The translations under genes were made by a program, and so were the position numbers. Positions 1 to 54,002 of a stretch of 64,000 nt of DNA are shown here, in pieces (position 1 is the first letter of the stretch; the number at the start of each line of letters is the position of its first letter). The notes beneath the pieces were generated by a model. The model was not told the origin of the DNA. It worked only from the letters and a program-made list of their open reading frames with translations, and searched no databases. Origin of the DNA: an uncultured bacterium (GTDB lineage Bacteria > Patescibacteriota > Minisyncoccia > UBA6257 > 2-01-FULL-56-20); the NCBI GenBank assembly GCA_963719425.1, contig OY970382.1, positions 385,246 through 449,245 on the forward strand, written 5' to 3'.

Positions 1-3000
1 TTGTTGAAATGGGCGCCGGAAGGGTGAAACCGCTCAAGGTAACAGCCGTGCTGCTCAGAGAATAGCCCGTGCCAAAGGTAAAGCCCGATGACGTTGCATA
101 CTGCTGAGAGCTCGTCGCGAGCGTAGTCGTCGGAATGCCGCCCGTGAGGGATGCGAGCGCGGATAATTGGATCGTGGTTGAGCAGTTGCCCGCATTCTGA
201 ACCGTTGTCGTGAAATTTGTCGGACTTGTTTGCGGCGGCGCCAAGGTTCCGTAGTTGATGCTCATTGGCGTGACATTGATCGCATTGAGTATACCCATAT
301 TCACGGGGCTTGAGGTGGCGGTCGCCGTAGTATTCGCGGAATCCGCAACCGTTATCACGCCTGTCCACGAGTCCAACGGGTAACTTGACAAAGTGATGCC
401 AGCGGAATCGGCAAAGTACCAGACATTCGCGGTGCACGTCACGGTCGTTGTGCCGTTGCTGAACACACAGCTTGAGCTTGCGATCTGATAGCAATTCTTG
501 TTGTTTGCGACGCAGTTTGGTCCGAGGGAGGTGCGATAAATGGTTGACGTCGCGAACGCTATCGGATTGCCCCCTGCCATCGTTGAGGCGATAACGGAAA
601 TGGGAAGCGTCCCGCCCGGCGAGAGCGTGATGGTCGTACTGCCGTTGGCAAGAAGGGCACTGAAAATCCGAGGGGGCCGGGTCCCGTACGTGACGATCTC
701 GGGATAAGCGACGTACGCATAGAGCGGCGTACTGCTCGCAAAAACAGCTTCAAAACAATAATCGGTGCCTTGGGGAGAACCATTGTCCACAAGCGAGAAA
801 TCCCAATTGCCGTCTTGTCCCGCGTAGATGGTCGAAGTGGGCGTAAAATTATTTGACGATTGATAGGTTTCTTCCACAACCGTGCGTCCCCCATCCACAG
901 GATCGGTTGAGGTCGCCGCAAGCGCCGTTCCATTGGGAACGTTAGAATTCGTATAAAACGCGATTGACGTTGCACTGGTGATGGCAGTGTAACTGGCTGG
1001 CGGTACGGCGCTGCAATTGGCATAGCCACTTTCATTTGCAAATTCAAGCGCGAATGAATCCGCGCCGGCGATCGAATTCGTCGCGTCAACCGCAAGGAGC
1101 ATGCGCAAGCGGAACTGCTCGCCTGTAGAAATAAGCGTCGTCGAGGCGTTCGCCACCGCGAGCGTGGGACCGACCTGCGCGGAATTTTGATTGGCAAACC
1201 ATTGGTACGCCGCTTGAGTATACGCGGTGGGCGACGAGCTGGTGGCGAACGACCAGTTGCTGTTATTGCCACAATCCCTGTTCGTGATATTCTGGGCACT
1301 GATAGCAGCGGGACCGCTGGAAGCATTGGAACGGCTCACGTTCACATAGGCAAGCGGCGTCTGGTTTCCCGAAACGTTGAGGAGCCACTGACCGGAACTG
1401 ACGGAATTTCGGAAATAAATAGGATGGCCGGACGGCCCGACCCAATTGGTATTCGTGAAGGTATAGGTGGAACCATTGCTGTATTGAACCCCGACGCCCC
1501 CCGTCGTAACGGTGTAATTGTTGGTGACGGTGGCGCTCGCGGAAAACACTACGCTTGGCGTAAAACTGGTGATCTCACAATCCGATGGAACGGTGCCGGT
1601 ACTGTTCGTGATGACAAGGTTATAGAAAGCGGACGTTCCCGTCATCGTGCCTGAGAGTGTTTGTTGTGGACTGGTTCCACTGAGCGTGGTTGTGCCGTTG
1701 CGCGCGGTAAAGATACCATTGTTCGTAAAATTACCGTTTAAGGTCAGTGCGTAATTATTGGTGCTCACGTCAAACGTGCCGCCATTCGTAAAACTGCCGT
1801 TCACGGTAAGCGGCGCGCCGAGCGTCCACGAGACAGCGCCGATGGTCAAAGCGCCGAGGATGGGCGAGGTCGGCGCGCAGGTCACCGTGCCGCTGCCGCC
1901 CAAGGTGAGGTTGTAGTATTGGGTGACTTGGCAGGTCTGTCCTGCGCCGTTGTAGTTCATGGTGCTGCCGGTGGAGACCGCATTAAGGGTGCCGATGGCC
2001 AAAGTGCCTGCCGCGTTAAGAAGAGAATTGTTTCCCTGCGTCCAGCTTCCGCTGCCGGTAAAGTTCCCTGTTATGGTGGTCGTGCCATTGTTGGTAACGG
2101 CTCCGGGTGAATTTATAGTTACGATAGTAGCGGTAATCGTGCCGTTGTTCGTCACCGTGCCGGTATTGCTCCATGTGCCAATCGCAGTGACCGTGCCGTT
2201 GTTCGTTACGGTCCCAGTACCAGTCAAGGTGCCGCTCACGGCAAGCGAGCTGCTGTTTGTCACGGCGCCGGGACTCGTCACGGTGAGGTTCGCGATCGCA
2301 ATCGCGTTTGTGCCGCTCATAACCGCCGTACCGCTCGATACGGTGTCCGTTCCGGTGATCGCCACCGTGCCGCCGTTGTTCGTAATGCCGGCGGGCGTAA
2401 CGATGAGGGTGCTCGTTCCATTCAAAGTACCACCACTCAAAGTCACAAGCCCTGTGAGCGTTGTCGTGGCAGCGCCGTTCAAGGTGAGCGTCCCCGCCGA
2501 GATGGTTGTCGTAGTATTCACGGTGAACGGAAACGCGCCGGTCGTAACTGTGCCGCCAGAGCCGGAAACCGTGAAACCCCCTGTCACGGTCATCGACGTA
2601 CTCATCGTCCAGGTGCTGGTCCCGCCATAGACGAGGTTCCCGAGGATGGGCGAGATCGGCGCGCAGGTCACCGCCCCGCTGCCGCCGAAGGTGAGGTTGT
2701 AGTATTGGGTCGCCTTGCAGGTCACAGCCGCGCCGTTGTAGTTCACGGTGTTGCCGCTCGCGGTCGCGGTGAGCGTCGTGATGCTTGGAGAGCCGCCGGC
2801 GTAGTTGAGCGTGGCATTCGTGCCGTTCGTAAAGGTCCCGACACCGCTCATCACCACGTTCGTCGTGCTGCCGGAGAGCGTCGTCGTAGCGTTGTTGGTG
2901 AAGGTTCCCGCGATGGCGAAGGAACTCGCGGTGGTGGCGCTGTCGGTGAACGCGCCGCTGTTGACGAAGACGCCACTGTCCGTGAAAGCCCCCGTCATCG

Positions 3001-4990
3001 TGACGGTCCCGTTGTTGGTCGTCGTAGTGCTCGCAGGAACGGTGAAGGTGGTCGCGGTCAGGGTGCTGGTGCTTGTGAGCGTCAGCGTCGTGCCGCTCGT
3101 CAAGGTCGCAGTCGTGATGCTCGATGTTCCGCTCAGGGTCTGGTTGCCCGTGAAGGTCGCCGTGCCGGTGATCGTGACGGCACCGCTACCCGATTGGGTA
3201 AGACCGCCTTGAAAAATAATAAGGGTACTGTTGCCAGAGAGAGTCCCCCCGCTCACCGTCACGAGCCCTACAAGCGTTTTGTTGCCGGTGCTGCTGTTGA
3301 GCACAAGTCCGCCGGAGGAAATCGACGTGATGCTCGATGCGGTGAAGGCGTATCCCGCGGTGGTGAGGGTTCCGCCGGAGATCGTTACCGTGCCGGCGAC
3401 CGTCGTCGCCGCGCCGAGCGTCCACGTGGCGGTGCCCGTGACGACGAGGTTCCCGAGGATGGGCGAGGTGAACGAGGTACAGGTCTTTGTGCCGCTGCCG
3501 CCGAAGGTGAGGTTGTAGTATTGGGTCGCAATGCAAGTCTGTGTGCTCGCGCGATCATACGTCACGGTATTATTGTTCGTGTGTGCATCAAAAATCCCCG
3601 TCCCGCTGGTTGCAATGGCTACGCTAAATTCAAGGCCAGACCCTGCGCCCTGGGTCCAGTTCCCCGTCAAGGTGAGCGTGGCACCGGTTGAAGAAACGTT
3701 GGCATTATTTGTCAGTGTGATGCCTGCGGTACCGACTGTCATTAACCCCAAAGTCATCCTGCCGTTCAAGGCCTGACTGTTAGTGCCGAAGGTCGCCGTG
3801 CCGGTGATCGTGACGGCACCGCTACCCGATTGGGTAAGACCGCCTTGAAAAATAATAAGGGTACTGTTGCCAGAGAGAGTCCCCCCGCTCACCGTCACGA
3901 GCCCTACAAGCGTTTTGTTGCCGGTGCTGCTGTTGAGCACAAGTCCGCCGGAGGAAATCGACGTGATGCTCGATGCGGTGAAGGCGTATCCCGCGGTGGT
4001 GAGGGTTCCGCCGGAGATCGTTACCGTGCCGGCGACCGTCGTCGCCGCGCCGAGCGTCCACGTGGCGGTGCCCGTGACGACGAGGTTCCCGAGGATGGGC
4101 GAGGTGAACGAGGTACAGGTCTTTGTGCCGCTGCCGCCGAAGGTGAGGTTGTAGTATTGGGTCGCAATGCAGGTCACAGCCGCGCCGTTGTAGTTCACGG
4201 TGTTGCCGCTCGCGGTCGCGGTGAGCGTCGTGATGCTTGGAGAGCCGCCGGCGTAGTTGAGCGTGGCATTCGTGCCGTTCGTAAAGGTCCCGACACCGCT
4301 CATCACCACGTTCGTCGTGCTGCCGGAGAGCGTCGTCGTAGCGTTGTTGGTGAAGGTTCCCGCGATGGCGAAGGAACTCGCGGTGGTGGCGCTGTCGGTG
4401 AACGCGCCGCTGTTGACGAAGACGCCACTGTCCGTGAAAATCGCGTTCATCGCGATAGTTCCGTTATTTGTCGTCGTCGCGCTCGCGGAAATAGTGATCG
4501 CGCCCGCGAAAGAAAGGCTTGCGCTGGAAGAAACGGTTTTATTGCCCGTCAAAGTGGTGAGTCCCGTATATGACGGCGTTCCGGTTCCATCAATCCATGC
4601 ACCGGCTCCGCTTAACGTTACCGCACCCGTGCCGGAGAGCGTTCCATTGATGGTAAAGCCGTTCGGCGCCGTGCCCGTTCCCGCGTCGGTGAGCGTATAC
4701 GACGAAAGGGCCAACCTCCCGCCACTATCGATGACCACCCCCGCAACCTGCGTAGCCGCCACCAAGGTTGTCGTCACGCCACTCAGAATTTCAATGGTAT
4801 CAGTGGTCGCCGGCGTCGTGCCGCCGCAGTTCGTCCAGTCGGCCGCAACGTTAAAGTTATAGCTGCCAGCCGTGCTCGTGGTTACGCAATTATTGGCATG
4901 GGCCGTTTTGGTTCCGATCATCAAACAACCGAAAAAAAATAAAACGGAGGCTAATATGAAAAACGTTTTCCGAAAAAGACGCTCCCTCAT
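1..4990 (-). CDS. Giant secreted repetitive surface protein, partial: N-terminus and start inside the window, C-terminus runs off at position 1. Signal peptide MRERLFRKTFFILASVLFFFGCLMIGTKTAHA, followed by Thr/Gly/Asn/Ser-rich beta-helix-like repeats with a recurring module motif CIATQYYNLTFGGSGTKTC...PILGNL.
   Basis: Minus-strand ATG at 4990-4988 overlaps the upstream gene stop (ATGA overlap at 4987-4990). The ORF is absent from the track because it has no stop inside the window. Plus-strand V/P/T-rich track ORFs such as 1959..2630 and 4257..4862 are antisense shadows of this repeat gene. Module motif recurs at ~1855, 2640, 3455 and 4090. Confidence 0.65.
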   Translation of the reverse strand, partial: MRERLFRKTFFILASVLFFFGCLMIGTKTAHANNCVTTSTAGSYNFNVAADWTNCGGTTPATTDTIEILSGVTTTLVAATQVAGVVIDSGGRLALSSYTLTDAGTGTAPNGFTINGTLSGTGAVTLSGAGAWIDGTGTPSYTGLTTLTGNKTVSSSASLSFAGAITISASATTTNNGTIAMNAIFTDSGVFVNSGAFTDSATTASSFAIAGTFTNNATTTLSGSTTNVVMSGVGTFTNGTNATLNYAGGSPSITTLTATASGNTVNYNGAAVTCIATQYYNLTFGGSGTKTCTSFTSPILGNLVVTGTATWTLGAATTVAGTVTISGGTLTTAGYAFTASSITSISSGGLVLNSSTGNKTLVGLVTVSGGTLSGNSTLIIFQGGLTQSGSGAVTITGTATFGTNSQALNGRMTLGLMTVGTAGITLTNNANVSSTGATLTLTGNWTQGAGSGLEFSVAIATSGTGIFDAHTNNNTVTYDRASTQTCIATQYYNLTFGGSGTKTCTSFTSPILGNLVVTGTATWTLGAATTVAGTVTISGGTLTTAGYAFTASSITSISSGGLVLNSSTGNKTLVGLVTVSGGTLSGNSTLIIFQGGLTQSGSGAVTITGTATFTGNQTLSGTSSITTATLTSGTTLTLTSTSTLTATTFTVPASTTTTNNGTVTMTGAFTDSGVFVNSGAFTDSATTASSFAIAGTFTNNATTTLSGSTTNVVMSGVGTFTNGTNATLNYAGGSPSITTLTATASGNTVNYNGAAVTCKATQYYNLTFGGSGAVTCAPISPILGNLVYGGTSTWTMSTSMTVTGGFTVSGSGGTVTTGAFPFTVNTTTTISAGTLTLNGAATTTLTGLVTLSGGTLNGTSTLIVTPAGITNNGGTVAITGTDTVSSGTAVMSGTNAIAIANLTVTSPGAVTNSSSLAVSGTLTGTGTVTNNGTVTAIGTWSNTGTVTNNGTITATIVTINSPGAVTNNGTTTITGNFTGSGSWTQGNNSLLNAAGTLAIGTLNAVSTGSTMNYNGAGQTCQVTQYYNLTLGGSGTVTCAPTSPILGALTIGAVSWTLGAPLTVNGSFTNGGTFDVSTNNYALTLNGNFTNNGIFTARNGTTTLSGTSPQQTLSGTMTGTSAFYNLVITNSTGTVPSDCEITSFTPSVVFSASATVTNNYTVTTGGVGVQYSNGSTYTFTNTNWVGPSGHPIYFRNSVSSGQWLLNVSGNQTPLAYVNVSRSNASSGPAAISAQNITNRDCGNNSNWSFATSSSPTAYTQAAYQWFANQNSAQVGPTLAVANASTTLISTGEQFRLRMLLAVDATNSIAGADSFALEFANESGYANCSAVPPASYTAITSATSIAFYTNSNVPNGTALAATSTDPVDGGRTVVEETYQSSNNFTPTSTIYAGQDGNWDFSLVDNGSPQGTDYCFEAVFASSTPLYAYVAYPEIVTYGTRPPRIFSALLANGSTTITLSPGGTLPISVIASTMAGGNPIAFATSTIYRTSLGPNCVANNKNCYQIASSSCVFSNGTTTVTCTANVWYFADSAGITLSSYPLDSWTGVITVADSANTTATATSSPVNMGILNAINVTPMSINYGTLAPPQTSPTNFTTTVQNAGNCSTTIQLSALASLTGGIPTTTLATSSQQYATSSGFTFGTGYSLSSTAVTLSGFTLPAPIST
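2716..2987 (-). repeat. Intragenic direct repeat R1. It appears identical to 4168..4439 (offset 1452 bp), inside the giant gene.
   Basis: Track ORFs from both copies give identical translations in several frames (2705..3691 vs 3830..4573; 2805..3212 vs 4257..4862 share the first 61 aa). Boundary bases were aligned by eye. Confidence 0.7.
3152..3535 (-). repeat. Intragenic direct repeat R2. It appears identical to 3788..4171 (offset 636 bp), inside the giant gene.
   Basis: Track ORFs 3231..3518 and 3867..4154 are 95/95 aa identical. Track ORFs 3186..3536(-) and 3822..4061(-) share an identical C-terminal 79 aa. Repeat ends were located by eye. Confidence 0.7.
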
Positions 4991-6684
4991 CGAACAATGA
5001 TGTTTAATTGGCAAAAATTCGAGATCACGTTTCCGTCGGCTTCATGCTCGTGGTAGATCACGGAAATATTGAAGGAGCCGTGCTGGGCGTCCGCCGCTGC
5101 CCGAAAGGTGAGTGACGAGGTCGCCGCGATGGGACCGGTCGGACTGCCTACCAAAACGACAACGCCATGGGGAAGATATCCCGTGGAAAGATCGTATGAT
5201 ATGCCATTAATAGAGGGATGAAGCACGGCGATAAACTGCGCGGTCCCGCCGAGGGGTAATTCCTGCGAAAAGGGCTCTATTTCGCAGGTTTGCTGGGCAC
5301 CGGGATTCACAAGCGTGATTCGGACCGGTGGCGCGGTGGAAGAGACCTCTTCATCCGTCGAACTTGGCGTGACCGGCGTTTCGGCCACTGATGGCAGTTC
5401 ATAATGCACCTCCACAAGCATCCCGTCTAAATAGACCGGCGGCAAAGGATCCTGCGTCGTCGGGATCCCTTGGACCCTTATCTGAAGGTTCTGAAGATCG
5501 GTCCAGTGCGATATCGGGAGCGTGACCGTGAACTCTTGCCAATTATCCACATTGACCTCGCCGATACTGACCCATGTTTGCCCGTCGGTGCTGTAGCTCA
5601 CGTCCAAAAAATTCTCGTCGGGGGTTGCCGGTGGGGCGGTCGCGGCCGTGGCTGTCGTACTCGTTGAGGCGATCGTCTCTTCCGATGAAGTTGACGCGGA
5701 TGACGTGGGTGTTGAAGTCTCGGATAAAAGGTTCGCGATCAATGGCTCACCTAATATCACCGTTTGAGAGGCATCGTCATCCGCGCGCGCGGCAGGAACA
5801 GCCCATGAAAAGAATTCCGGGGGCGAAATAAAAGAAGTTGTTGAATCGTTTGTATCATTCGTTGGTGCAGGCGGCGGAAGCGGCGGCGAAGGTGGCGGGG
5901 GCGTCACGACCGGAGGCGTTTCCATGTTGCCAGAAGATGAATTATCAACCGGTGCGGCATCGGAAGACGTTCCACTGGCCTCTGTGTCCGGAACAACAAT
6001 AGGAGCAGTGTCTGTTGGCACGACGGATGTCGCCGTGGTAATTGATGTGGTCGGAACGGTGGTCGTGGGCTCCCCTTCTTCTATGTTCTCCATTGAGGAA
6101 GCCGATGTGGCGCTACTCGAAGTTGAACTCGTGAAGTCCGGCGACGAAGTTCCATTCGCTTCATCCGACGGTGCCGCCGCGGCGGTGCTGGTCGTGGTCG
6201 TGGCGGTGACGGTCGTGGCGGAAGCGGTTTCGTCACCTATCTGCCACATGAACGTGAGGCCGACGTTCGTGATGTTGCTGGAGGTTGGAATATCGCCGCT
6301 CAAAAACCCACCGCAAAAGATCTGCGTGTCCGAGCCGTTGCTCAACGCGGAATTTTCCGCAGAGAACGGAGTGCCCGTGGCCATCGTTTCGGGCCGCCCT
6401 TGGGCGTTTGCGGGATTTTGCCAATCACCAAGACAGATGGATGGATAGAAATCTTGCACATCGGCGCGGAGCGAAAGGAGGCGAACACCAAAAAAAACAG
6501 CGACGACGAGCGCTAAACAACCGAGTATCCAAACCCAAGGGTGCCGCACCCGGAAGTTCGGCCTGAGATTAAGCGCGTTCTTTCCGTAGAGGATGTGCTT
6601 AAGGATGTTTTTTGAAGACGGGCGTGATGCCTTATGTACATCAAAAACTTTCTTCTCTTTACTGTCTTTTCTCGAGGAGGTCAT
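4987..6684 (-). CDS. Membrane-anchored Ser/Thr/Pro-rich low-complexity protein (565 aa), hypothetical. Co-oriented with and translationally coupled to the downstream giant gene.
   Basis: Complete ORF with an N-terminal TM segment (WVWILGCLALVVAVFFGV) and long poly-S/T/P linker. Its stop overlaps the start of the giant gene. Confidence 0.6.
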   Translation of the reverse strand: MTSSRKDSKEKKVFDVHKASRPSSKNILKHILYGKNALNLRPNFRVRHPWVWILGCLALVVAVFFGVRLLSLRADVQDFYPSICLGDWQNPANAQGRPETMATGTPFSAENSALSNGSDTQIFCGGFLSGDIPTSSNITNVGLTFMWQIGDETASATTVTATTTTSTAAAAPSDEANGTSSPDFTSSTSSSATSASSMENIEEGEPTTTVPTTSITTATSVVPTDTAPIVVPDTEASGTSSDAAPVDNSSSGNMETPPVVTPPPPSPPLPPPAPTNDTNDSTTSFISPPEFFSWAVPAARADDDASQTVILGEPLIANLLSETSTPTSSASTSSEETIASTSTTATAATAPPATPDENFLDVSYSTDGQTWVSIGEVNVDNWQEFTVTLPISHWTDLQNLQIRVQGIPTTQDPLPPVYLDGMLVEVHYELPSVAETPVTPSSTDEEVSSTAPPVRITLVNPGAQQTCEIEPFSQELPLGGTAQFIAVLHPSINGISYDLSTGYLPHGVVVLVGSPTGPIAATSSLTFRAAADAQHGSFNISVIYHEHEADGNVISNFCQLNIIVR

Positions 6685-6698
6685 TCCTCTCTATTTTA

Positions 6699-6739
6699 CC
6701 ATCAAAAACAGAAAATCCGCAGAAAAACTGTGGATTTTC
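6699..6739 (-). terminator. Rho-independent terminator downstream of sodA.
   Basis: Hairpin GAAAAUCCACAG-uuuuu-CUGCGGAUUUUC read on the minus strand, immediately after the sodA stop and followed by a UGUUUUUGAU run. Confidence 0.5.
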
Positions 6740-7347
6740 TAGAGATGCTTCTCTACCTCGCTCCAATTCACGACATTCCACCAGGCAGTGATATAATCCG
6801 GGCGCCTATTCTGGTATTTCAGATAGTACGCGTGCTCCCAAACATCCAATCCGAGCACCGGTTCCTGCCCTTTCGTGAGCGGGCTATCCTGGTTCGGCGT
6901 TGTAGCGACGATCAGCTTGCCATTGGCATCGCGCACGAGCCATGCCCAGCCACTTCCGAAAACGCCCCCCGCCGCTTTCGTAAACTCCTCTTTGAATTTC
7001 AGGAATCCTCCGAACGTCCGTGCAATCGCATCCCCTATTTTTCCGCTCGGCTCGCCACCTCCGCCGTTGTTTGGTCCGGCCATGATCGTCCAGAAAAACG
7101 AGTGGTTCGCGTGTCCCCCGCCGTGATTGCGCACCGCGGTGCGGATGTCCTCCGGCACGGAATCCAGCAACCGCAAGAGTTCCGCAAGCGGTCTGTCGGC
7201 GATCTCCGGATACTTTTCAAGCGCGGCATTCAGATTGTTCACATACGCCTGATGATGCTTCGTAAGGTGGATCTCCATCGTCTTCGCATCAATATACGGT
7301 TCAAGCGCCTCATAGGCATACGGCAGTTCTGGCAGTTCGTATTTCAT
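6739..7347 (-). CDS. sodA: Fe/Mn superoxide dismutase.
   Basis: Motifs [25 protein letters not shown] and DVWEHAYYL over 202 aa. Confidence 0.93.
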
Positions 7348-7419: not shown

Positions 7420-7490
7420 TGCGGGGTCGTCTAATGGTAGGACAGCGGCCTTTGGAGCCGTTTATCCTGGTCCGAATCCAGGCCCCGCAG
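7420..7490 (+). tRNA. tRNA-Gln, anticodon UUG.
   Basis: Cloverleaf folded by hand. Acceptor UGCGGGG/CCCCGCA with U1:A72, D-stem GUCU/GGAC, anticodon stem GCGGC/GCCGU with loop CUUUGGA (UUG at 34-36), T-arm CCUGG-UCCGAAU-CCAGG close to the E. coli tRNA-Gln T-arm (CCUGGUUCGAAUCCAGG, from memory). No encoded CCA. Confidence 0.85.
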
Positions 7491-7582
7491 CAGTCTAGTT
7501 TAGTTACGATGGACCAAGAGCCGTCGAAAACCGGACATCTCCGTCCCACCCACGTCATACCGGCTGAGCGCCGTATCCAGAG

Positions 7583-7614
7583 AAGAAAACCGCCGACTAC
7601 TCGGCGGTTTTCTT
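7583..7614. terminator. Bidirectional intrinsic terminator between the tRNA-Gln gene and the 3' end of the minus-strand islet genes.
   Basis: Perfect 11-bp hairpin AAAACCGCCGA-cuac-UCGGCGGUUUU, with an A-run on one side and a U-run on the other. Confidence 0.6.
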
Positions 7615-7623
7615 CGTTCTTGT

Positions 7624-8223
7624 CTAGTTTACCCTGTATGATATTTTTCCACGTTCGTCTGCGTCTGCTCTTATTAAAACAAATTCTAGGTTGCCATTCT
7701 CGATGGTTCGCTCTATTGAACTTTGAATTTTCTCATCGGCCCTACTTTTTGCACGCCTAGACATGAAAGATATTTTTTCGACATCGTCTTTGCTGGTCAT
7801 GCCATGGAAAACAACGAATTCGACCGGCGAAAATAATAACCTCGCGTCTTTTGGATAGATATTTAGTTTTAGGAAAGTCTTATCCATGCCTATTTTCTTT
7901 ATTTGACTCACGGCCTGTCTCCTGCCTTTAATTACTACCTTCCTTGTATAAATTGGCTCAACCTTTTCGTACTGCTCTTGTTTATCGCTTAAATCATTTT
8001 GTATATCATTAAAATCCCATCCCAATAATTTAACTCGATCCTTGTAAGAATCAAGTTTCTCTTGCTCTTCAATAATCTCACCTAATTCAGGCAATGTTAC
8101 CTTCTTCCCCATTATAAAAAGGGCGGCGGCGCTTAGTTGAAAGATCTTGTTACAGCACGGACATATGCCAAAAATATAATGCTGCTCTTTATAAAACAGA
8201 ACTAAAAATTTTGTGATGTCCAT
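7624..8223 (-). CDS. P2: 199-aa paralog of the adjacent gene. N-terminal CPCC motif, central charged coiled coil, and a C-terminal Hjc/PD-(D/E)xK-like core that looks degenerate (the catalytic E-x-K position reads MSRR).
   Basis: Lies within a ~37% GC islet. C-terminal alignment to P1: KDARLLFSPVEFVVFHGMTSKDDVEKISFM vs GDCRAILNPIDYISFGGLTKKGKVEKISFIE. Confidence 0.6.
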   Translation of the reverse strand: MDITKFLVLFYKEQHYIFGICPCCNKIFQLSAAALFIMGKKVTLPELGEIIEEQEKLDSYKDRVKLLGWDFNDIQNDLSDKQEQYEKVEPIYTRKVVIKGRRQAVSQIKKIGMDKTFLKLNIYPKDARLLFSPVEFVVFHGMTSKDDVEKISFMSRRAKSRADEKIQSSIERTIENGNLEFVLIRADADERGKISYRVN

Positions 8224-8224
8224 T

Positions 8225-8794
8225 TTAATAAGGTATTAAGTTGATAGTCGATTTCCCCTCTCCGGCTTCTTTGACTCTTTCTTTTACCTGGTGCTGAGTT
8301 CTACTTAGGGGCTGACTGCCTGTCTTAGCTTCAATAAATGAAATTTTTTCAACCTTCCCCTTTTTTGTTAGCCCACCAAAAGATATGTAATCAATTGGGT
8401 TTAATATGGCCCTACAATCCCCATTCTCAAATCTGAACTTGTTTGAGGCTGGTAAAATTTGGTCAAATATTTGACCGATATTTGTATACTTTGTAATAAC
8501 CTGAACCCTCTTGGGTCTTTCTATTTTGCGATGTTTTAATTTTTTTATTTTTTCTTTTATGTCTTCGATTTTTTTCAACCAAGTTTCTTCTTCTTTCTCT
8601 GTTTTTTTAAAAGCTTTTTTGATATTATCACGCTGCTGATCTAATTTATTTAAAACATATCCGGGGTATGGTTTTTTTCTGATATCAAAAAGGTGGGCGT
8701 TCTTCGCACCGAAAGCTCCTCCGCAGTGATTGCATTTAATAGTTAGGCCCTTAACACCCTCCAGTATTTTTATTATGTCGATTTCTTCGTTCAT
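8225..8794 (-). CDS. P1: 189-aa protein with an N-terminal CNHC zinc-knuckle-like motif, a Lys/Glu-rich coiled coil, and a C-terminal restriction-endonuclease-fold core resembling Hjc / Mrr / YraN (PID-x13-IEAK).
   Basis: Segment IDYISFGG-LTKKGKVEKISFIEAK is similar to the Hjc catalytic core VDLVAGNG-KKYLCIEVK (Hjc sequence recalled from memory). Low GC. Call made from motifs only. Confidence 0.55.
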   Translation of the reverse strand: MNEEIDIIKILEGVKGLTIKCNHCGGAFGAKNAHLFDIRKKPYPGYVLNKLDQQRDNIKKAFKKTEKEEETWLKKIEDIKEKIKKLKHRKIERPKRVQVITKYTNIGQIFDQILPASNKFRFENGDCRAILNPIDYISFGGLTKKGKVEKISFIEAKTGSQPLSRTQHQVKERVKEAGEGKSTINLIPY

Positions 8795-8808
8795 ATTGCT
8801 TTTTATTT

Positions 8809-15675: not shown

Positions 15676-16167
15676 TTATTGCTGCGATGCGGTAAATTTC
15701 CATTCTATGCGGTCGCCCGCATGCACTGTGGCGTGATCGGCGCCCTCCGTGGCATACGCACCATTCACCCAGTACTGCCAGTACGCGCCGCCTGCACCAT
15801 TTATCTTATCACCGATCTCCGTGATGAGAATCCCCGTGCCCGGATAGACCTTGTAATCAAAGGCAAGTCCAGTATTCGCGGCAGCAGCCTTGACCACCGA
15901 AAAAACGGTGGAGGTGGCGGCCACGGGAACGGCGCTGTTCACGATATTTTTCGTACCATCAAAGACAACGAGCGTCGTGGAGGCGACTGGCAGCAAAGCG
16001 GGCATGGACGCGGATGATGACAGGACTTTGGCGGGGACCGCCATGGGTGCGGCCCCCGGCGCCGGGAGCGGTGCCGATGAAAAGGAATGCCATCCTGCCC
16101 AACCGGCGAGTGCCGCCGCAACCACAACGCACGCAATGATAAAAAATCTTTTCATTGGCTCGTACAA
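15676..16167 (-). CDS. Secreted DUF4430-family protein (163 aa).
   Basis: Signal peptide, then a DUF4430-like core ...FDGTKNIV...GTGILITEIGDKINGAGGAYWQYWVNGAY...GDRIEWKF. Confidence 0.7.
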   Translation of the reverse strand: MYEPMKRFFIIACVVVAAALAGWAGWHSFSSAPLPAPGAAPMAVPAKVLSSSASMPALLPVASTTLVVFDGTKNIVNSAVPVAATSTVFSVVKAAAANTGLAFDYKVYPGTGILITEIGDKINGAGGAYWQYWVNGAYATEGADHATVHAGDRIEWKFTASQQ

Positions 16168-18053
16168 AGATTATTCAGAACTGCGCGGGTTGCGGAACCG
16201 ACAAAGCCGTTGCCGGACGAAAGCCCTTTCGGCGCAAGGATCTGATCGGCAAAAATATTTTGGAAGGCGGCAATCGCATTTTTGGTCCCATCGCCAAAGT
16301 AGGCGGTCTCGTTGCCCGGCGAGCCTGGGCCGTCCTTCGCCACCTCCGTAAGTGAGGTGTAGTTGAGGACCCTTTGGAGATTCTCTACGTCGGGGTCATG
16401 CATTCCCTGATACAAGTTCTTATTGAACGCGACCGCGCAATCGTTCGCCTTGAACTCCAGTGTGACCAATTCCTTTTCTAAATCAATGAGCTCGCCGATC
16501 ACACTTGTCGTTGACGCGCCGAGAATCTCCCCCGCCGTTGAGGTCGGGGTAGTCGTGGCCATGCTCTGTAGAGAAGGCGACGATGAGGATGCCGCGAGCG
16601 AAGATGATGCCGACACGCCGCTTCCTCCACCGCCGGAGCTCGCGGATACAGCCGGCGCCGTGACCGTGAGCGGCAATTCGGAACCGTCACCATAATACCA
16701 GACCACGTTGTCACCTTGCTTCACATTATAATCCGCCGCACTGACTGAAGGAGAAACAAAATTCACGAGATACAGCCACCCGTCCGCGCCGGCTGCCGCA
16801 ACGGATCCGATTTGATCCACGTATGATCCGAAGCTGTACTCGTGAACGTGATAGCTCGCGCCGCAGGATGACGACGCGTCCGCAAGAACATCCATCGCCG
16901 TGAGTGCCTGCCCCGTGCCCGCGCAGAGTTCCGCGGACGGTCCTTCAATGCGGTAAGAAACCTGCACGGGCGCCGGTCCACCGCTGCCTCCCCCTCCCCC
17001 ACCGCCTCCGCCGCTCCCTCCTCCCACTAGCACGACGATCCCCGTTGAGGTCGCCGTGGACGTCGTGCTTGTAGCCGTCGTTTTGGAAACTGTGGAAACT
17101 GGCGTAATCACGGCGGTCGGCAAAAACTTTCCAAGGAGAGCGATCACGGCATATGAGGTTGTCACCGGACTGAACGAGTCCTCACCGCTCCCCGACTGGT
17201 ATTCAAAAAATCCGGAAGACGCGTTCTGAAACGAAAGCAAACTCGCCACGGGATCGGTGCCGCTCGCCGCGGTCCAGGCGGACGACGTCGGACTTTGCCC
17301 GAGTGCATTGATCGCGGAAATAATCCACGAATCGGATGAGGCATCCGTAGACGTCCCGTAAGGGCTTGTGGGATCATACGAAAACCCGCCATCGGGGTTT
17401 TGCGCGCTCTTCAAATATTTGACGGCATTCTGAATGGCAGAGTCGGAAACATTTGACCCGGTCGCAAGGAGCGCCATGACGGCGGCTGCGGTCGTATTCG
17501 TATCGCTCGTTCCGCCGATGACATATGTGAAGCCGCCATTGGTGACGTTCTGGTTATTCAACAAAAAATTACGTGCGCCCAAGACCGTCGGATCGCTTGA
17601 CGACACTCCTGCCGCACTCAACGCGAGCAATCCGAAGATGTCGTCGTTAAGCGTAGAGGTGCCGCCGATCTCACCCGTCGTCGTGCTCACGAAGCCTTCA
17701 AGGTCCGCAACGAGGTCTTCACCGCCAATGATTGTGCGCGGATCGCTGCCGATCGCCGCGATCGCCATGATCGGCGCCTCAAGACCAATTGCCGTAGAGG
17801 TACTCGTGCTCGCGAGCGCAAGCGACACAGAAGAAGTGCTCGGTGCATTGCCCGCCGCAGAAAGTGCCATGATGCTCCACGGATTAAACGACTTGGATTG
17901 CAAATAAGAAACAGCAGCGGCAATTGCCGAGGAAATGTCCGGCGTCGTGGAAGTGGTGGAACTCGCGTCCACAAATGAATGCGTGGGCGACATCGACACA
18001 AAGAACAACGCAGCTGCGGCCAAGAGCACAACGAACAAAAAAGTTTTTTTCAT
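16152..18053 (-). CDS. Surface protein (633 aa): signal peptide, prenyltransferase/terpene-cyclase-like alpha-alpha toroid repeats, a poly-Gly linker, an internal DUF4430 domain, and a C-terminal peptidoglycan-binding domain.
   Basis: Repeated ...GGF.Y... toroid-like units. DUF4430-like segment VQVSYRIEGP...GWLYLVNFV...GDNVVWYYG. C-terminal PG_binding_1-like ...LQRVLN...FGDGTKNAIAAFQ.... Confidence 0.75.
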   Translation of the reverse strand: MKKTFLFVVLLAAAALFFVSMSPTHSFVDASSTTSTTPDISSAIAAAVSYLQSKSFNPWSIMALSAAGNAPSTSSVSLALASTSTSTAIGLEAPIMAIAAIGSDPRTIIGGEDLVADLEGFVSTTTGEIGGTSTLNDDIFGLLALSAAGVSSSDPTVLGARNFLLNNQNVTNGGFTYVIGGTSDTNTTAAAVMALLATGSNVSDSAIQNAVKYLKSAQNPDGGFSYDPTSPYGTSTDASSDSWIISAINALGQSPTSSAWTAASGTDPVASLLSFQNASSGFFEYQSGSGEDSFSPVTTSYAVIALLGKFLPTAVITPVSTVSKTTATSTTSTATSTGIVVLVGGGSGGGGGGGGGSGGPAPVQVSYRIEGPSAELCAGTGQALTAMDVLADASSSCGASYHVHEYSFGSYVDQIGSVAAAGADGWLYLVNFVSPSVSAADYNVKQGDNVVWYYGDGSELPLTVTAPAVSASSGGGGSGVSASSSLAASSSSPSLQSMATTTPTSTAGEILGASTTSVIGELIDLEKELVTLEFKANDCAVAFNKNLYQGMHDPDVENLQRVLNYTSLTEVAKDGPGSPGNETAYFGDGTKNAIAAFQNIFADQILAPKGLSSGNGFVGSATRAVLNNLCTSQ

Positions 18054-18119
18054 GAAACGAAAAATCCCGCAACGGGCGGGACGACGGGTGACAACACAAC
18101 ACCTCCACCGTCCCTTAGC

Positions 18120-18260
18120 TCGAGGAACCTGGTTTATTTTTATGTATCAGGAACGGTAATCGGACTTTCCGCGGCTCCGCGGATCACCGTAGCGGCACTG
18201 TGCGGGATTCCCACCCGCTTCCCCATTCCTGATACTGACCTTTCAAATTGTGAACGGTGC
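18120..18260 (-). promoter_or_regulatory. Candidate cobalamin (B12) riboswitch in the 5' leader of 16152..18053.
   Basis: On the minus strand, a 10-bp P1 helix GUAUCAGGAA...UUCCUGAUAC encloses UGGGGAAGCGGGUGGGAAUCCCGCACAGUGCC..., matching the GGGAA / GGUG / AAUCC / CCCGC-ACUGU-like core as recalled from memory. A downstream stem-loop UCCCGC-ccguu-GCGGGA plus UUUUUCGUUU precedes the start codon. The B12-box match is imperfect. Confidence 0.4.
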
Positions 18261-18350: not shown

Positions 18351-19628
18351 ATGGTACGTTCGCGGATACGCCGCTTCCTTAAGGTCCTCGGGCCGGGTCT
18401 CATCACGGGCGCCGCGGACGACGACCCTTCCGGCATCGCAACATATTCACAGACGGGAGCCCAATTCGGTTACGGACAACTTTGGACGGCGGTTTTTCTT
18501 TACCCGCTCATGACTGCGGTTCAGGAGGCGGCCGCCCGCATCGGCGCTGTGACTCGAAAAGGCATTGCCGCAGTTACAAAAGAACATTATGCGCGGAGGG
18601 TGCTCTACGGCATTGTAGCGCTCGTCGTCGTCGCAAACACTATCAATATCGGCGCGGACATAGGCGCGATGGCCGCATCGCTCCGCCTGATTATTCCCGT
18701 TCCTTTTGTAATCGCCGCCCTCCTCTTCGTGGTTGTCATACTGCTCCTTGAGATTTTCATCCCGTATAAACGCTACGTGTGGATACTGAAATGGCTCGTT
18801 CTTGTCATGCTCGTCTATCCCGCAACGATGCTTATTGTGCAGGAACCGTGGGGCGAGATCTTGCGCGCGACTTTTCTTCCCCATCTTGCGTTCTCTCCCT
18901 TGTTCCTTTTCATTCTTACTGGCGTCGCCGGCACCACTATCTCACCGTACTTGTTTTTCTGGCAGGCGTCGGAAGAAGTCGAGGAGGAAATAAAGAAAAA
19001 GACCGCGATGCGGACTTCAATCGGCAAAACATTCATAAAAAATATGCGGATTGATAACGCATTCGGCATGCTCGTCTCGCAATTCACCACGTGGTGCATC
19101 ATTATCACCACCGCGACCGTTCTCAATCAGCATGGCGTCACAAATATTGCCACCGCCGCCGACGCGGCGAAAGCTCTCTTTCCTTTGGTGCGTACATTTC
19201 CCCATGCGGGATTCCTTGCCGAATGCATCTTCGCCGTAGGCGTGATCGGGCTTGGATTGCTCTCGGTGCCCGTGCTCGCCGGGTCTGCGGCATATGCGGT
19301 TGCGGAAACATTTGACTGGCACGAAGGACTTTATAGAAAACTACGTTCGGCGCACGGATTCTACGGCGTGATCACGCTTGCAACCCTCCTCGGCCTCTGC
19401 ATCAACTTCATCGGCATTGATCCAATAAAAGCACTCATCGTCGCAGCCGTCGTGAACGCCGTGGCCGCCGTGCCGCTCATCCTCGTCATCATTTTCATCT
19501 CATCGAACCGCACAATCATGGGCGAGCACGCGAGCGGAATTCTTTCGCAGACGTTCCTCTGGATCACATTCGCGGCGATGCTCATTGCCGCCGGCGCGAC
19601 CCTATGGACGACGTTTTTGCCCACTTAA
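18351..19628 (+). CDS. mntH: NRAMP-family divalent metal (Mn2+/Fe2+) transporter.
   Basis: LGPGLITGAADDDPSGIATYSQTGAQFGY motif and ~11 TM helices. Confidence 0.9.
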   Translation: MVRSRIRRFLKVLGPGLITGAADDDPSGIATYSQTGAQFGYGQLWTAVFLYPLMTAVQEAAARIGAVTRKGIAAVTKEHYARRVLYGIVALVVVANTINIGADIGAMAASLRLIIPVPFVIAALLFVVVILLLEIFIPYKRYVWILKWLVLVMLVYPATMLIVQEPWGEILRATFLPHLAFSPLFLFILTGVAGTTISPYLFFWQASEEVEEEIKKKTAMRTSIGKTFIKNMRIDNAFGMLVSQFTTWCIIITTATVLNQHGVTNIATAADAAKALFPLVRTFPHAGFLAECIFAVGVIGLGLLSVPVLAGSAAYAVAETFDWHEGLYRKLRSAHGFYGVITLATLLGLCINFIGIDPIKALIVAAVVNAVAAVPLILVIIFISSNRTIMGEHASGILSQTFLWITFAAMLIAAGATLWTTFLPT

Positions 19629-26608: not shown

Positions 26609-27013
26609 CTACGAATTCTCCCTTGCTATTTTTCCCAGGATTGCGATGAGTGTCGCGCGCTCCCGTGGCGTGAGTACCGCGAACATCCTGTTCAACTGCC
26701 CTGCTTTTTTGCGGATACCCTGTGCAAGGAACTCCTTACCGCGACTGGTAAGCTTGATACGCACCGTACGCCGGTCTTTTTTGTCAAACGACCGCGCAAG
26801 CAACTTGTCCTTCACCAATCCGTCAATGAGAAGCGTCGCCGCCGGCGGCGTCACGCGAAGGTACCGTGCGACATCGTGCATGAAGGGACGCCCTTCCTCT
26901 TGCACATATCGAAGCGTGTGGAAATGCAGCATGGAGTACGCATGGTGCTCGTCCCGCATGCGGCGTCCGACGCAAAAGAGCAAAGAAAGGATCTTGACGT
27001 TCTTGGAGGGCAT
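26609..27013 (-). CDS. MarR-family transcriptional regulator.
   Basis: 134 aa with a winged-HTH MarR pattern. Confidence 0.8.
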   Translation of the reverse strand: MPSKNVKILSLLFCVGRRMRDEHHAYSMLHFHTLRYVQEEGRPFMHDVARYLRVTPPAATLLIDGLVKDKLLARSFDKKDRRTVRIKLTSRGKEFLAQGIRKKAGQLNRMFAVLTPRERATLIAILGKIARENS

Positions 27014-27093
27014 GGATAATTAGGTTACTTAACTATTATGCGGCCTGGCAGCGAAGGATGTCAAGGAGGCATAGTGAATGCTATAATTAAGGC

Positions 27094-28857
27094 ATTCAAA
27101 CGAAAGAAACAAAAGCCTGTCAGAATTGCAAAAACCAATTTACGATTGAGCCGGAGGACTTCGCATTTTACGAGAGGATTGACGTCCCGCCGCCGACATG
27201 GTGCCCAGAGTGCCGAATCCAGAGGCGATCGGTATTTTGGAACGAGCATTCCCTGTTCCGCAAAAAGGACGCCCTCACCGGAAAAGAAATATTTTCCACC
27301 TATCCCGAAGAGTCCCGCATTTCGATTTACGACCATGATTACTGGTGGTCAGACGCGTTCGATCCGATGCGGTACGGGCGGGAGTATGATTTCTCTAAAC
27401 CATTTTTTGAGCAGTTCAATACACTGTCATATGAAGTTCCGTGGCCTTCACGAGCGGTCCAAAGGTTGGTGAACAGCGATTACTCGAACCAAGCGTCAGA
27501 TGACAAAAATTGTTACCTTTGTTTCAACGGGAACTTTGGCGAAGACTGCCTCTATGGAGTTGCTTTCAACCGGACGAAGAACTGCGTTGACTTTTATCAA
27601 ATCCAAGATTGCGGGTACTCGTATGAAATCTTTTCAGTAAACAAGGGCTACAAGAATTTCTTCACCGTGGAGAGTGACAACTGCCGCGAATCATGGTTTT
27701 TGCTCAACTGCCACGATTGCGACCATTGTTTCGGCTGTGTGAACCTGTGGCACAAACAATACCACATTTTCAACGTCCCCTACTCAAAAGAGGAGTATGC
27801 AGAGCGGATAAAGAAGCTCAACCTGGGATCCTACGAATCCCTACAGAAAATACGCAAAGAAGTGCTTGCATTTCAGACGCGATATCCGCTGCGGTTCATG
27901 CACGGGGGAGGACTCAATACCAATGTCACCGGAGAGTACGTCTACCAGTCAAGAAATGCGCGGGATTGCTACCAAGGGGTGGCGATAGAAAATTCAAGGT
28001 TCGTGCAAAGCGTCTCTGACGGCGTCAAGGACTCATATGATTACACGAACTGGGGCCAGAACAGCGAATTGATTTATGAATCGGTAAGCATCGGGGAGGA
28101 TTGCCAGAGAATCAAGTTCTCCTTTGATTGCTGGCCCGCGTGCCAAGACGTTGAATATTCCATGAATTGCCACTCCTCTTTCGGATTGTTCGGCTGCGTC
28201 GGACTGAAAAAGAAAAATTACTGTGTCCTTAACAAGCAATATTCGAAAAAGGCCTACGAAGACCTGGTGGAAAAGATCAAGGCGCATATGAATTCAGTGC
28301 CGTATAAGGACAAGGCGGGAAGGACATACCGCTACGGCGAGTTCTTTCCGCCAGAATTCTCCCCTCTCGCCTATAATGATTCATCCGCGATAGATTACTT
28401 CCCGCTCAGCAAAGAGTCAGCGACAAAAGGCGGCTTTGCTTGGCGCGATGCTCCTCCCCAAAAATATGTAGCCGATGTCCTCGCTCGTAATTTGCCGGAT
28501 CACATAGACGATGCGGGGAAAGAGATCACGAAGAAGATCATCTCCTGCGGTGCCTGTTCAAAAGCATATCGGATAGTGCCGACCGAGTTTGACTTTTATC
28601 AACAGTTCGGCATTCCGCTGCCGCGGCTTTGCCACAATTGCCGCTTTTCGGAGAGACTGAAGTTCAAAAACCCACCGAGGTTCTGGCATCGCGCTTGCCA
28701 ATGCACAGGTCAAAAAAGCGAAAACGGCGCATATGCAAATACAGGAGTCCATTTCCACAAGGACACTCGTTGCCCCAACGAATTTGAAACACCCTATGCC
28801 CCCGACCGCCCCGAGATCGTGTACTGCGAGCAGTGCTACAACGCAGAAGTGGTGTAA
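27094..28857 (+). CDS. Cysteine-rich multi-zinc-ribbon protein. The track ORF starts at 27367, but the conserved-looking coding frame is open from 27091 with no canonical start.
   Basis: The same frame upstream of Met-27367 encodes ...KACQNCKNQFTIEPEDFAFYERIDVPPPTWCPEC.... That segment is an internal repeat of ISCGACSKAYRIVPTEFDFYQQFGIPLPRLCHNC later in the protein. Other repeats include CH..FGCVxL...Y.xxN..YSK..YE. There is no ATG/GTG/TTG between the stop at 27088-27090 and 27367. ATT at 27094 is the only start-like codon. Confidence 0.55.
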   Translation: MQTKETKACQNCKNQFTIEPEDFAFYERIDVPPPTWCPECRIQRRSVFWNEHSLFRKKDALTGKEIFSTYPEESRISIYDHDYWWSDAFDPMRYGREYDFSKPFFEQFNTLSYEVPWPSRAVQRLVNSDYSNQASDDKNCYLCFNGNFGEDCLYGVAFNRTKNCVDFYQIQDCGYSYEIFSVNKGYKNFFTVESDNCRESWFLLNCHDCDHCFGCVNLWHKQYHIFNVPYSKEEYAERIKKLNLGSYESLQKIRKEVLAFQTRYPLRFMHGGGLNTNVTGEYVYQSRNARDCYQGVAIENSRFVQSVSDGVKDSYDYTNWGQNSELIYESVSIGEDCQRIKFSFDCWPACQDVEYSMNCHSSFGLFGCVGLKKKNYCVLNKQYSKKAYEDLVEKIKAHMNSVPYKDKAGRTYRYGEFFPPEFSPLAYNDSSAIDYFPLSKESATKGGFAWRDAPPQKYVADVLARNLPDHIDDAGKEITKKIISCGACSKAYRIVPTEFDFYQQFGIPLPRLCHNCRFSERLKFKNPPRFWHRACQCTGQKSENGAYANTGVHFHKDTRCPNEFETPYAPDRPEIVYCEQCYNAEVV

Positions 28858-43539: not shown

Positions 43540-43772
43540 GGTGGCAATACGTAAACTTCCCCCGAGTCGTGCTCACGAGGGGTATAAGAAAAAGCTTAGT
43601 GATATCCGTACTGAAAGTCAACGCGCTCCTTGTTAGGTCAGTGGCTATCGGTGGCTACTAGATGTAGCGTGCCAGCAGGCCCGGACGATGCTTGTGCACA
43701 GCTACTCTATGTTTGCTCTATGCTAGAATAAGTCTGTGGACGATTTGCGCCAAAATATGTCTGAGCAAGTCC

Positions 43773-44777
43773 ATGGATAATAAAGGTAGAGGAGTCATAC
43801 TGGACTTTTCCGCGCAAAAACGGCGTACATTTCTTGTAACGGGTGTTGTTTTTGTAGTCCTGCTCATAATTCCGGGGTTAATCGGCGTCGCCTATTACCA
43901 AGCCGACCAAAGCCTTACGGCACAGATATACCTTCAGCAACAAACTTTGGTCAATCTTGCGACAAGCGCGCTGGAAATCAAAATCAATCGTCTCGTTGAG
44001 ATAGGAGAGTTAGTTGCATCGTCTGACCAAATCTCCAAGGATGCCGCGAATGGCCATTGGAGCGATGCAGCGAACTTTGCGCGCGATATGGAGAACGATG
44101 TTGCCTATGATACCTTCATCGATAGAATTATCTTCTACGACGCGGACGGCATCCAACAGTCGGCATATCCGGAACTCAAAGGCGGCCTTGGGACAGCTGC
44201 GACGAGCACGGATTGGTATCGTTTATTAAGCAGTGGAGGAAACTTCTACGTTTCCGGCGTGTCACAACGGATTTCTGTACCACGGATCAATGTGGTAAGC
44301 ATTATAACGCCAATAAAGACCGGCGGGACAATCAACGGCTTTTCAGTTCTCCAAATCCCTGCGCGTAATTTCTTAGAGTTCGGTACGGATCTTTCCCTTG
44401 GGACCTACGGGTTTGCATATATTGTTGACTCAAAAGGCAACCTTGTGGCGCACCCACAGTTCTCTTCGCAGAACGGCGAGGTGGTCAATTATTCTTTTGT
44501 GCCGGCGGTAAAGGAGATAATGGCAGGTAAGACGGGAGTGATGATTGTTTATAATCAGAATGGGACCGAGAAAAGCATTGTGGGATACGAGCCGTTGCAG
44601 CGGTATCGGTGGGGAGTTGTGATACAAGAATTGTACGACGAAGTGTTTGCACCAAGAGACAGCATCCTTTTTTCCTACCTGATCGAGATGATAACCGCCT
44701 TCGTATTTGACCTCTTGTTTTCCTATCTTGTGCTCAGATTATTGCTTGCCAAGGCCAAGAAATACCAAAAGCCATGA
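43773..44777 (+). CDS. Cache-type extracytoplasmic sensor domain protein with two TM segments and no cytoplasmic output domain.
   Basis: TM, periplasmic Cache-like domain, TM, stop. The probable start is MDNKGRG at 43773; the track ORF starts at 43692. 4-nt overlap with the pilin gene. Confidence 0.65.
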   Translation: MDNKGRGVILDFSAQKRRTFLVTGVVFVVLLIIPGLIGVAYYQADQSLTAQIYLQQQTLVNLATSALEIKINRLVEIGELVASSDQISKDAANGHWSDAANFARDMENDVAYDTFIDRIIFYDADGIQQSAYPELKGGLGTAATSTDWYRLLSSGGNFYVSGVSQRISVPRINVVSIITPIKTGGTINGFSVLQIPARNFLEFGTDLSLGTYGFAYIVDSKGNLVAHPQFSSQNGEVVNYSFVPAVKEIMAGKTGVMIVYNQNGTEKSIVGYEPLQRYRWGVVIQELYDEVFAPRDSILFSYLIEMITAFVFDLLFSYLVLRLLLAKAKKYQKP

Positions 44778-53973: not shown

Positions 53974-54002
53974 TATGCACGTAACTTCCCGTACCTTTTA
54001 TC

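Follow-up and report, generated by a model that had tools for sequence, protein, structure and literature searches.

What function could two adjacent genes of low guanine-cytosine (GC) content perform in the genome of an uncultured patescibacterium, and by what route could they have arrived there? The genes, named A and B below, lie one behind the other on the minus strand of a 64,000-nt stretch of contig OY970382.1 (this whole stretch is called the window, and all coordinates without another label refer to it). They are paralogous (28% identity across 167 residues, E 7e-12), and at their junction, TAA-A-ATG, the start codon of B is placed 1 nt past the stop codon of A. A first-pass annotation, made from the sequence alone, had described two tandem paralogous genes here, and its coordinates agree exactly with the list of open reading frames (ORFs). 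The islet is interpreted here, with slightly more confidence than an even chance would give, as a horizontally acquired operon for an obligate heterodimeric PD-(D/E)xK endonuclease acting in defence. The parts of this interpretation differ in strength and are considered in turn.

Family Membership and Fold of the Two Proteins

Both proteins belong to PF10107 (Endonuc_Holl). The match is 62.1 bits (7e-17) for A and 33.6 bits (4e-8) for B, the curated gathering cut-off of the family being 23.8 bits, and all of the aligned homologues (61/61) match the same profile. The first-pass annotation had compared the proteins with nucleases of the Hjc/Mrr/YraN type and had found no named system for them. 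The comparison is supported at the profile level via PF10107. As to the name, the family does have one, PF10107/COG4741, but it is uncharacterised, and the pair matches no PADLOC model.

PF10107 itself and the predicted nuclease nature of its members were known beforehand. In the literature PF10107/COG4741 is described, by bioinformatic prediction only, as a minimal PD-(D/E)xK core with the motif E-(V/I)D-E(V/I)K (PMC1189080, PMC3424549), tied by profile to YraN/AHJR and to archaeal resolvases (PMC1189080). Scans of A and B against NCBIfam, PHROGs and PADLOC returned nothing informative. None of the 61 members matched the Hjc family at E<=1, no direct Pfam match to YraN was obtained, and VRR_NUC was matched only weakly, in 5 members.

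An exhaustive profile search returned 1,575 cluster representatives at E<=1e-3. Among the best 150 of these 1,575 the majority possess an N-terminal knuckle of the form 'CPxC...F...A.LFD', and a minority have a transmembrane helix instead. The archetype of COG4741 is a solo gene whose product starts with a transmembrane helix (PMC1189080). Neither A nor B has such an N-terminal transmembrane or signal helix; a CxxC hairpin stands in its place, and the maximum 19-residue N-terminal hydropathy is 0.6 in A and 1.5 in B, compared with 2.0–3.3 in the relatives of transmembrane type. The archetype has in common with A and B the C-terminal minimal PD-(D/E)xK core, the E-(V/I)D-E(V/I)K motif and the long helix preceding it. 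It differs in being solo and membrane-anchored, whereas the type found in the window has a CxxC knuckle and always occurs as A together with B, B being degenerate.

The AlphaFold 2 (AF2) monomer models (mean predicted local distance difference test, pLDDT, of 80 for A and 73 for B) have the same order of elements in both proteins: a short helix, a β-hairpin with the Cys knuckle in its turn, an unbroken helix of ~70 residues and a β-β-β-α core. In A the single long helix comprises residues 45–116 (72 residues). The model of B has an extra C-terminal β-hairpin. The best Foldseek matches for B were tRNA-splicing endonuclease subunits, with a non-significant E of 1.2.

Putatively Active and Degenerate Subunits

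In the model of A, D/E111 is situated on helix 1, D135 on strand 2, E155-x-K157 on strand 3 and Q167 on helix 2. By the alignments and the model, A has the residues expected of a PD-(D/E)xK enzyme on the elements expected for them. The first of these residues, D111, is replaced by E in most homologues. Residues C21, C24, G107, P133, D135, F139 and K157 are invariant in the A family (alignments of 46 and 61 homologues). The spacing PID-x13-IEAK given for this motif in the first-pass annotation is to be corrected to PID-x18-IEAK.

Protein B has lost most of this set. In 13/13 aligned B-type sequences the acids of helix 1 and of ExK are missing and only the D/E of strand 2 is kept (E135 in the window B), and the helix-1 stretch reads GR.Q in B-type proteins versus IG.I.EK in A-type ones. 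The earlier description of a nuclease core in both proteins therefore holds for the shared architecture and for membership of PF10107, but the full catalytic motif is present in A only. The degeneracy of B is also found in pairs only ~22–25% identical to the window pair. Since the same losses are seen in the most distant pairs, the split between A and B is old and the asymmetry has been maintained. Protein B could be regarded, on these alignments, as an ancient paralogue acting as a structural or regulatory partner without catalysis.

Such a division of labour has parallels. In XPF-ERCC1, Mus81-Eme1 and the heteromeric archaeal tRNA-splicing endonucleases, one catalytic subunit is combined with one degenerate paralogue, which gives a single active site, and the predicted A:B complex would be built from a catalytic and a degenerate subunit in the same way. 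These enzymes differ from A:B in that there is no detectable sequence relationship, in that they dimerise through helix-hairpin-helix (HhH) or other domains and not through a heptad-matched coiled coil, and in that they are conserved housekeeping enzymes. Hjc and YraN/UPF0102 are small dimeric PD-(D/E)xK nucleases. Like A they have a small fold in which the catalytic E is carried by helix 1, the D by strand 2 and ExK by strand 3. Hjc forms a homodimer that contains two active sites and lacks both stalk and knuckle, whereas the pair has one active subunit. The relation of the pair to Hjc and YraN is one of resemblance, not membership.

Conservation of the Gene Pair

Wherever the contig of a CxxC-type locus is long enough, B comes directly after A, without exception, and the junction measures -1 to +2 nt. 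This rule was established on the window and on loci L001, L002, L007, L008, L009, L010, L011, L013/14, L015, L016 and L029–L050, about 20 of which are independent. They come from several phyla and include one archaeon-like contig and two viral contigs.

The closest pair, in L001, is located between trmD and comEC; its A protein is 86% and its B protein 79% identical to those of the window. Loci L002–L005 (47% identity) lie within a 6.5-kb low-GC island. The pair is also present in Omnitrophota (L007) and Aminicenantes (L008). Four distant members with 25–30% identity (L009, L010, L011 and L013/14) each have a second PF10107 gene immediately after the first, and both CxxC-type matches on viral contigs (L015 and L016) are A-B pairs. 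A scan of metagenomes with a narrowed family alignment gave 22 loci in which the contig extends past gene A, and B is next in all of them (22/22).

Relatives with a transmembrane N-terminus follow another rule. All 12 of those collected from IMG/VR (L017–L028) are solo genes on viral contigs, and this type accounts for 12/14 of the family-bearing viral contigs. Searches with central family members against cultured plasmids and phages matched only solo relatives of the transmembrane type, on Sulfolobus and Acidianus plasmids and in Acinetobacter and Flavobacterium phages (H1–H12); tblastn of A against the same cultured plasmids and phages gave no match. The knuckle type thus goes with a pair and the transmembrane type with a single gene. 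The transmembrane type may serve mobile elements as a membrane-anchored nuclease.

The A-B unit recurs intact in other genomes beside different flanks, which bears on the question, raised in the first reading of this DNA, whether the two genes travel together. The pair is an ancient and widely conserved two-gene unit, not the product of a local duplication.

Proposed Coiled-Coil Stalk and Cysteine Knuckles

The distance between the knuckle and the nuclease core was compared in 21 non-redundant pairs as the spacing that separates the P(I/V)(D/E) motif from the first knuckle Cys. In no pair do the spacings of A and B differ by more than 3 residues (Pearson r 0.99, Spearman 0.97). They fall into classes of ~90, 97, 104 and 111 residues, that is, one-heptad steps. 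Both stalks have a peak of hydrophobic periodicity at 3.5 residues, and in the length class of the window the phases of A and B relative to the catalytic anchor are equal (91 versus 92 degrees). In the 9 pairs of this class the charge of the central helix is +7 to +13 in A and -6 to -14 in B.

The knuckles of the two proteins are unequal. In the 46- and 61-homologue alignments the head of A has no conserved Cys or His besides C21 and C24, and the head of B has no conserved ligands besides its three Cys, which are arranged as C-x-C-x2-C in other clades. Weak matches to CpXC or zinc-ribbon families, found in 15/61 members, agree with a half ribbon. With two Cys in A, three in B and no other ligands, a four-ligand zinc site would be possible only between the chains.

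Taken together, the degenerate B, the matched stalks, the common periodicity, the opposite charges and the half zinc sites point to a parallel, in-register A:B coiled coil, an antiparallel arrangement being less likely. Proteins A and B very probably form one nuclease complex; its parallel geometry and the sharing of zinc are inferred from these features. The Rad50 zinc hook could serve as a comparison: each chain has one CxxC where its long coiled coil ends, and two chains share the zinc. The CxxC-type knuckle at the end of a long helix in A and B would be a similar candidate for a shared zinc site. The Rad50 hook caps an antiparallel coiled coil formed within one chain and connects two complexes, whereas the knuckles of A and B are N-terminal and the stalk is presumably parallel and formed by two chains.

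The following architecture could be proposed. The two long helices would run parallel and in register as a coiled-coil stalk of ~10 nm. One end of the stalk would hold both nuclease-fold domains side by side, and at the opposite end the CxxC of A and the CxCC of B would form one shared zinc-bound head. Subunit A would bring the only complete active site (D/E111, D135, E155-x-K157), and subunit B, having lost the catalytic acids, would serve as its structural or regulatory partner. With a single active site per heterodimer, nicking or structure-specific cutting is predicted, not blunt double-strand cleavage.

Composition, Boundaries and Horizontal Acquisition

The stretch 7624–8794 has a GC content of 0.362 versus 0.547 for the remaining window and is the lowest-GC 1.17-kb stretch of the 64 kb (window mean 0.543, standard deviation 0.037). 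In a 300-nt sliding window the GC content drops from 0.55–0.62 to 0.31–0.40 between ~7600 and ~9050. The sharp low-GC islet described in the first-pass annotation is thus real, but it is not limited to the two genes and reaches ~9055. Three other, milder GC dips are present in the window, at ~27000–28000, ~43700–45000 and ~53800–55000 (0.46–0.48 per 1 kb versus ~0.55).

The borders are as had been claimed, with tRNA-Gln and a bidirectional hairpin on one side and a 1698-aa ORF on the other. The hairpin acts as a bidirectional terminator common to tRNA-Gln (+) and the A-B operon (-). The 1698-aa ORF is on the minus strand, ends at 8809 and encodes a surface protein with NHL repeats, fn3, Big_7 and two PG_binding_1 domains. 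Its 3' tail has a GC content of 0.37–0.42 versus 0.57–0.63 upstream and may be foreign DNA joined in frame to the ORF. Similarity to this tail was found in none of the fetched loci.

The window and L001 are 86.5% identical over 1,151 nt, and their flanks are unrelated. The shared block starts within a few bases of the start codon of A and stops at the stop codon of B. A search for the empty site by means of the L001 neighbours found none of the other L001 genes in the window. Horizontal acquisition, as proposed in the first reading, is supported by the foreign composition and by the presence of the same cassette at the unrelated L001 locus, with homology confined to the two ORFs. In a pattern scan the clade of the window B was found in 3/185,579 species representatives, which belong to different phyla; more distant copies occur in Omnitrophota, Aminicenantes, the archaeon-like contig and viral contigs. 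Five close relatives are found in five different contexts, so that synteny is not conserved. The GC content of the pair is 0.08–0.16 below that of the flanks in L001, L002, L032, L033, L036, L037 and L040, similar to the flanks in other loci and higher in L008.

A 1,173-bp unit, the block in common with L001, is bracketed by the two copies of an 11-nt direct repeat, TTTCTTCGTTC (gene strand: GAACGAAGAAA); the low-GC tail of the surface-protein ORF falls outside this unit. The repeat is present in exactly two copies in 64 kb versus 0.05 expected, and two copies were obtained in 0/100 shuffles. It resembles either a microhomology at an insertion junction or a duplicated target. The absence of integrase, transposase and attachment repeat noted in the first-pass annotation is valid for both enzymes, domains of which are not found in the neighbouring window ORFs scanned, but an exact direct repeat does bracket the cassette. 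The conclusion that this is not a classical integrative element stands: there is no integrase among the ORFs scanned, and the sole significant flanking repeat is 11 nt long and lies off the tRNA. In L037 a 41-nt imperfect (76%) direct repeat is placed around the pair (5946–5986 and 7073–7113), and no flanking repeat is found around the pair in L001 and L033. No general mobility mechanism emerges from the flanking repeats. In L001, genes for a TraG/TrwB-like coupling protein of type IV secretion and for a DUF8128 protein (4258–6897), ~1 kb upstream of the pair, hint at conjugative-element DNA near it.

Genomic Neighbourhoods and a Possible Role in Defence

The pair is a resident of defence islands and recurs beside known defence genes in unrelated genomes. 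In L007 the neighbours include an Mrr-type enzyme (PADLOC PDC-S02) and two more restriction-like proteins, and in L008 GmrSD (HEC-06) and a dGTPase. Locus L009 contains an OLD-family ATPase-TOPRIM gene (1426–3462), a Shedu SduA_C protein and MazE; L010 contains an SNF2 helicase, a DNA methyltransferase and NOV_C. In L013 (3912–6040) and L014 (2703–4960) the pair forms part of a BREX cluster: a regulator with WYL and helix-turn-helix (HTH) domains precedes it by 16 nt, PglZ and BrxL follow it, and ARPP-1 and HIRAN genes are found upstream. In L032 (248–2206), L033 (7242–11343) and L036 (590–2566) GajA or GajA with GajB directly adjoins the pair, and a restriction-modification system is present too. 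The pair of L032 begins 48 nt after the GajA-like gene, in the usual position of GajB. Ten further loci, with 62 neighbours, yielded three type II methyltransferases and R.HinP1I. Known defence genes are found within ~5 kb in at least 9 of ~16 independent flanked loci, a count for which there is no background rate for comparison.

By analogy with these neighbours, an anti-mobile-element function is likely, and a role of the A:B complex specifically in defence stands at an even balance. The complex would then be a nuclease effector that works on its own against invading DNA. Two-gene nuclease systems of defence islands such as Gabija GajAB and Septu PtuAB resemble the A-B pair in their compact operon, nuclease effector, patchy horizontal distribution and location in defence islands. 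The pair differs from them in having no ATPase, no recognisable sensor domain and no PADLOC model, and its part in defence is predicted only.

Several observations weigh against this interpretation or parts of it. The neighbours of the pair in the window, L001 and L011 are housekeeping genes, so defence is deduced by association from other genomes only. In PADLOC-DB v2.0 protein B has no match and A has only a coiled-coil-type match to LmuB (E 0.001). The nuclease core of the A model has a moderate pLDDT of 58–81, and the long helix dominates structure searches, which for this reason matched no solved nuclease significantly. The structure predictions cover the A and B monomers only, which bears on the dimer geometry and on the zinc site. 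The stalk length classes track clades, so that the correlation corresponds to ~3–4 independent matched length changes and not to 21 independent points, and charge complementarity is absent in the shorter classes, outside the clade of the window. In the literature no experiment on any PF10107 member was found.

A further version of the proposal could be considered, in which CxxC-type PF10107 pairs are a widespread and unrecognised autonomous immune nuclease, with a zinc head sensing the invader and the stalk acting as a molecular ruler. The head would recognise a DNA end, a modified base or a phage protein, and the rigid stalk, changing by whole heptads in both subunits together, would position the single-site cut relative to the recognised feature. 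This version is rather unlikely.

PF10107 has been listed for twenty years as a 'predicted endonuclease', without function or structure. The literature found contains no described PF10107 pair or named system beyond the bioinformatic classifications of 2005–2012 and one mention in a list of domains. The obligate A/B pairing of the knuckle branch, the systematic degeneracy of B, the co-variation of the stalks by heptads, the putative split zinc site and the association with defence islands were found neither in the literature searched nor in PADLOC. If the knuckle branch always consists of an active and a degenerate subunit with matched stalks, it would be a defined and readily testable two-protein machine. 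If the proposal is true, a compact (~1.2 kb) candidate would be added to the defence or addiction modules. Nothing more than the two genes seems to be transferred when such a module moves, even into genomes of very small size, and a nuclease whose single site is kept at a set distance from a separate head might be of interest to enzyme engineers.

Alternative Explanations

A toxin-antitoxin or addiction module is one possibility, though rather an improbable one. In this case A would be a DNA-cutting toxin restrained through the coiled coil by the inactive B, and degradation of B or loss of the cassette would set A free. The tight two-gene operon with translational coupling, the combination of one active and one inactive paralogue and the patchy, horizontally mobile distribution all fit such a module; islands with the pair also carry MazE and an MqsA-like HTH protein. 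The explanation is also compatible with defence through abortive infection. However, B equals A in size and retains every element of the architecture, the knuckle and a heptad-matched stalk among them, which suggests co-assembly into one machine rather than simple neutralisation. No DNA-binding antitoxin domain was found in B by Pfam. The gene of B is downstream of the putative toxin gene, and in type II systems an antitoxin gene downstream of the toxin is the less common order.

Three other explanations are slightly less probable still. The first is housekeeping repair or recombination, with A:B as a structure-specific endonuclease for Holliday junctions, flaps or forks, similar to XPF-ERCC1 or Mus81-Eme1. 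The pairing of an active with a degenerate subunit parallels these eukaryotic enzymes, and the housekeeping neighbours in L011 and the window would suit such a role, as would the profile kinship to archaeal Holliday junction resolvases and YraN (PMC1189080). A repair enzyme is hardly to be expected, however, with so sparse a distribution of the window B clade among species representatives, without conserved synteny among its close relatives, with strongly foreign composition and with recurrence of the pair within defence islands.

The second is a selfish mobile nuclease cassette, comparable with a free-standing homing endonuclease and of no benefit to the host, which is likewise quite improbable. 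It would account for homology between the window and L001 over exactly two ORFs at unrelated sites, for the repeats bracketing the unit in the window and the pair in L037 and for the lack of an integrase or transposase nearby. Homing requires flanking homology between donor and recipient, however, and none is seen; L001 and L033 are devoid of a flanking repeat. Homing enzymes are not known to have a degenerate partner or a stalk matched in length, and in the loci examined there is only one copy per genome.

The last, an accessory effector of an OLD/GajA-type ABC ATPase, with A:B working only together with the partner ATPase (cf. PtuB/PtuA and GajB/GajA), is again quite improbable: an AAA_15/AAA_21 and OLD-TOPRIM gene is found within 3.5 kb in 4 of ~20 independent loci, directly adjoining in L032 (48-nt gap) and L033, and PF10107 is listed among the nuclease domains used in annotating AAA15/21 ATPase defence systems (PMC11464382), but no such ATPase is near the pair in the window, L001, L007, L008, L011 or L013, and its placement upstream in L032 and downstream in L033, the latter with its own complete GajA and GajB, fits co-location in an island better than a fixed operon. 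The heterodimeric defence nuclease is the preferred interpretation of the islet.

Feature Coordinates and Other Observations

The features discussed above are collected in Table 1.

Table 1. Positions of the A-B islet, its functional elements and its borders in the window.
Feature	Coordinates	Strand	Evidence or remarks
Gene A, putative catalytic subunit, 189 aa	8225..8794	-	ORF list, PF10107, AF2 model
Gene B, degenerate paralogue, 199 aa	7624..8223	-	ORF list, PF10107, AF2 model
A predicted catalytic residues D111, D135, E155-A-K157	8324..8464	-	homologue alignments
A Q167	8294-8296	-	
B degenerate core	7753..7848	-	D126-x-R and P-V-E135 kept; GRRQA replaces the helix-1 acid; S-R-R replaces ExK
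A long helix	8447..8662	-	Lys-rich, central 50 residues net +7
B long helix	7894..8091	-	acidic, central 50 residues net -7
A CNHC knuckle, residues 21-24	8723..8734	-	C21 and C24 invariant in 46 and 61 homologues
B CPCC knuckle, residues 21-24, three Cys	8152..8163	-	C21, P22, C23 and C24 invariant in B-type
11-nt direct repeat TTTCTTCGTTC, upstream copy	8782..8792		codons 1-4 of A
11-nt direct repeat TTTCTTCGTTC (GAACGAAGAAA on the gene strand), downstream copy	7609..7619		4 nt past the B stop, into the terminator stem
Hairpin, shared bidirectional terminator	7582..7615		perfect 15-bp stem and 4-nt loop, A and T runs either side
tRNA-Gln(TTG), boundary landmark	7420-7491	+	
Low-GC 3' tail of the 1698-aa ORF, ~82 codons	8809..9055	-	past the second PG_binding_1

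Outside the islet, an adenosylcobalamin (AdoCbl, B12) riboswitch (69 bits) is located at 18101–18249 (-), just upstream of a 633-aa ORF (16152..18053). This ORF contains DUF4430, prenyltransferase-like and PG_binding domains, and a divergent gene for an Nramp transporter is found at 18351..19628. A Ser/Thr/Pro-rich ORF of 565 aa without a Pfam match (4987–6684, minus strand) adjoins a superoxide dismutase gene and probably encodes another surface or secreted protein.

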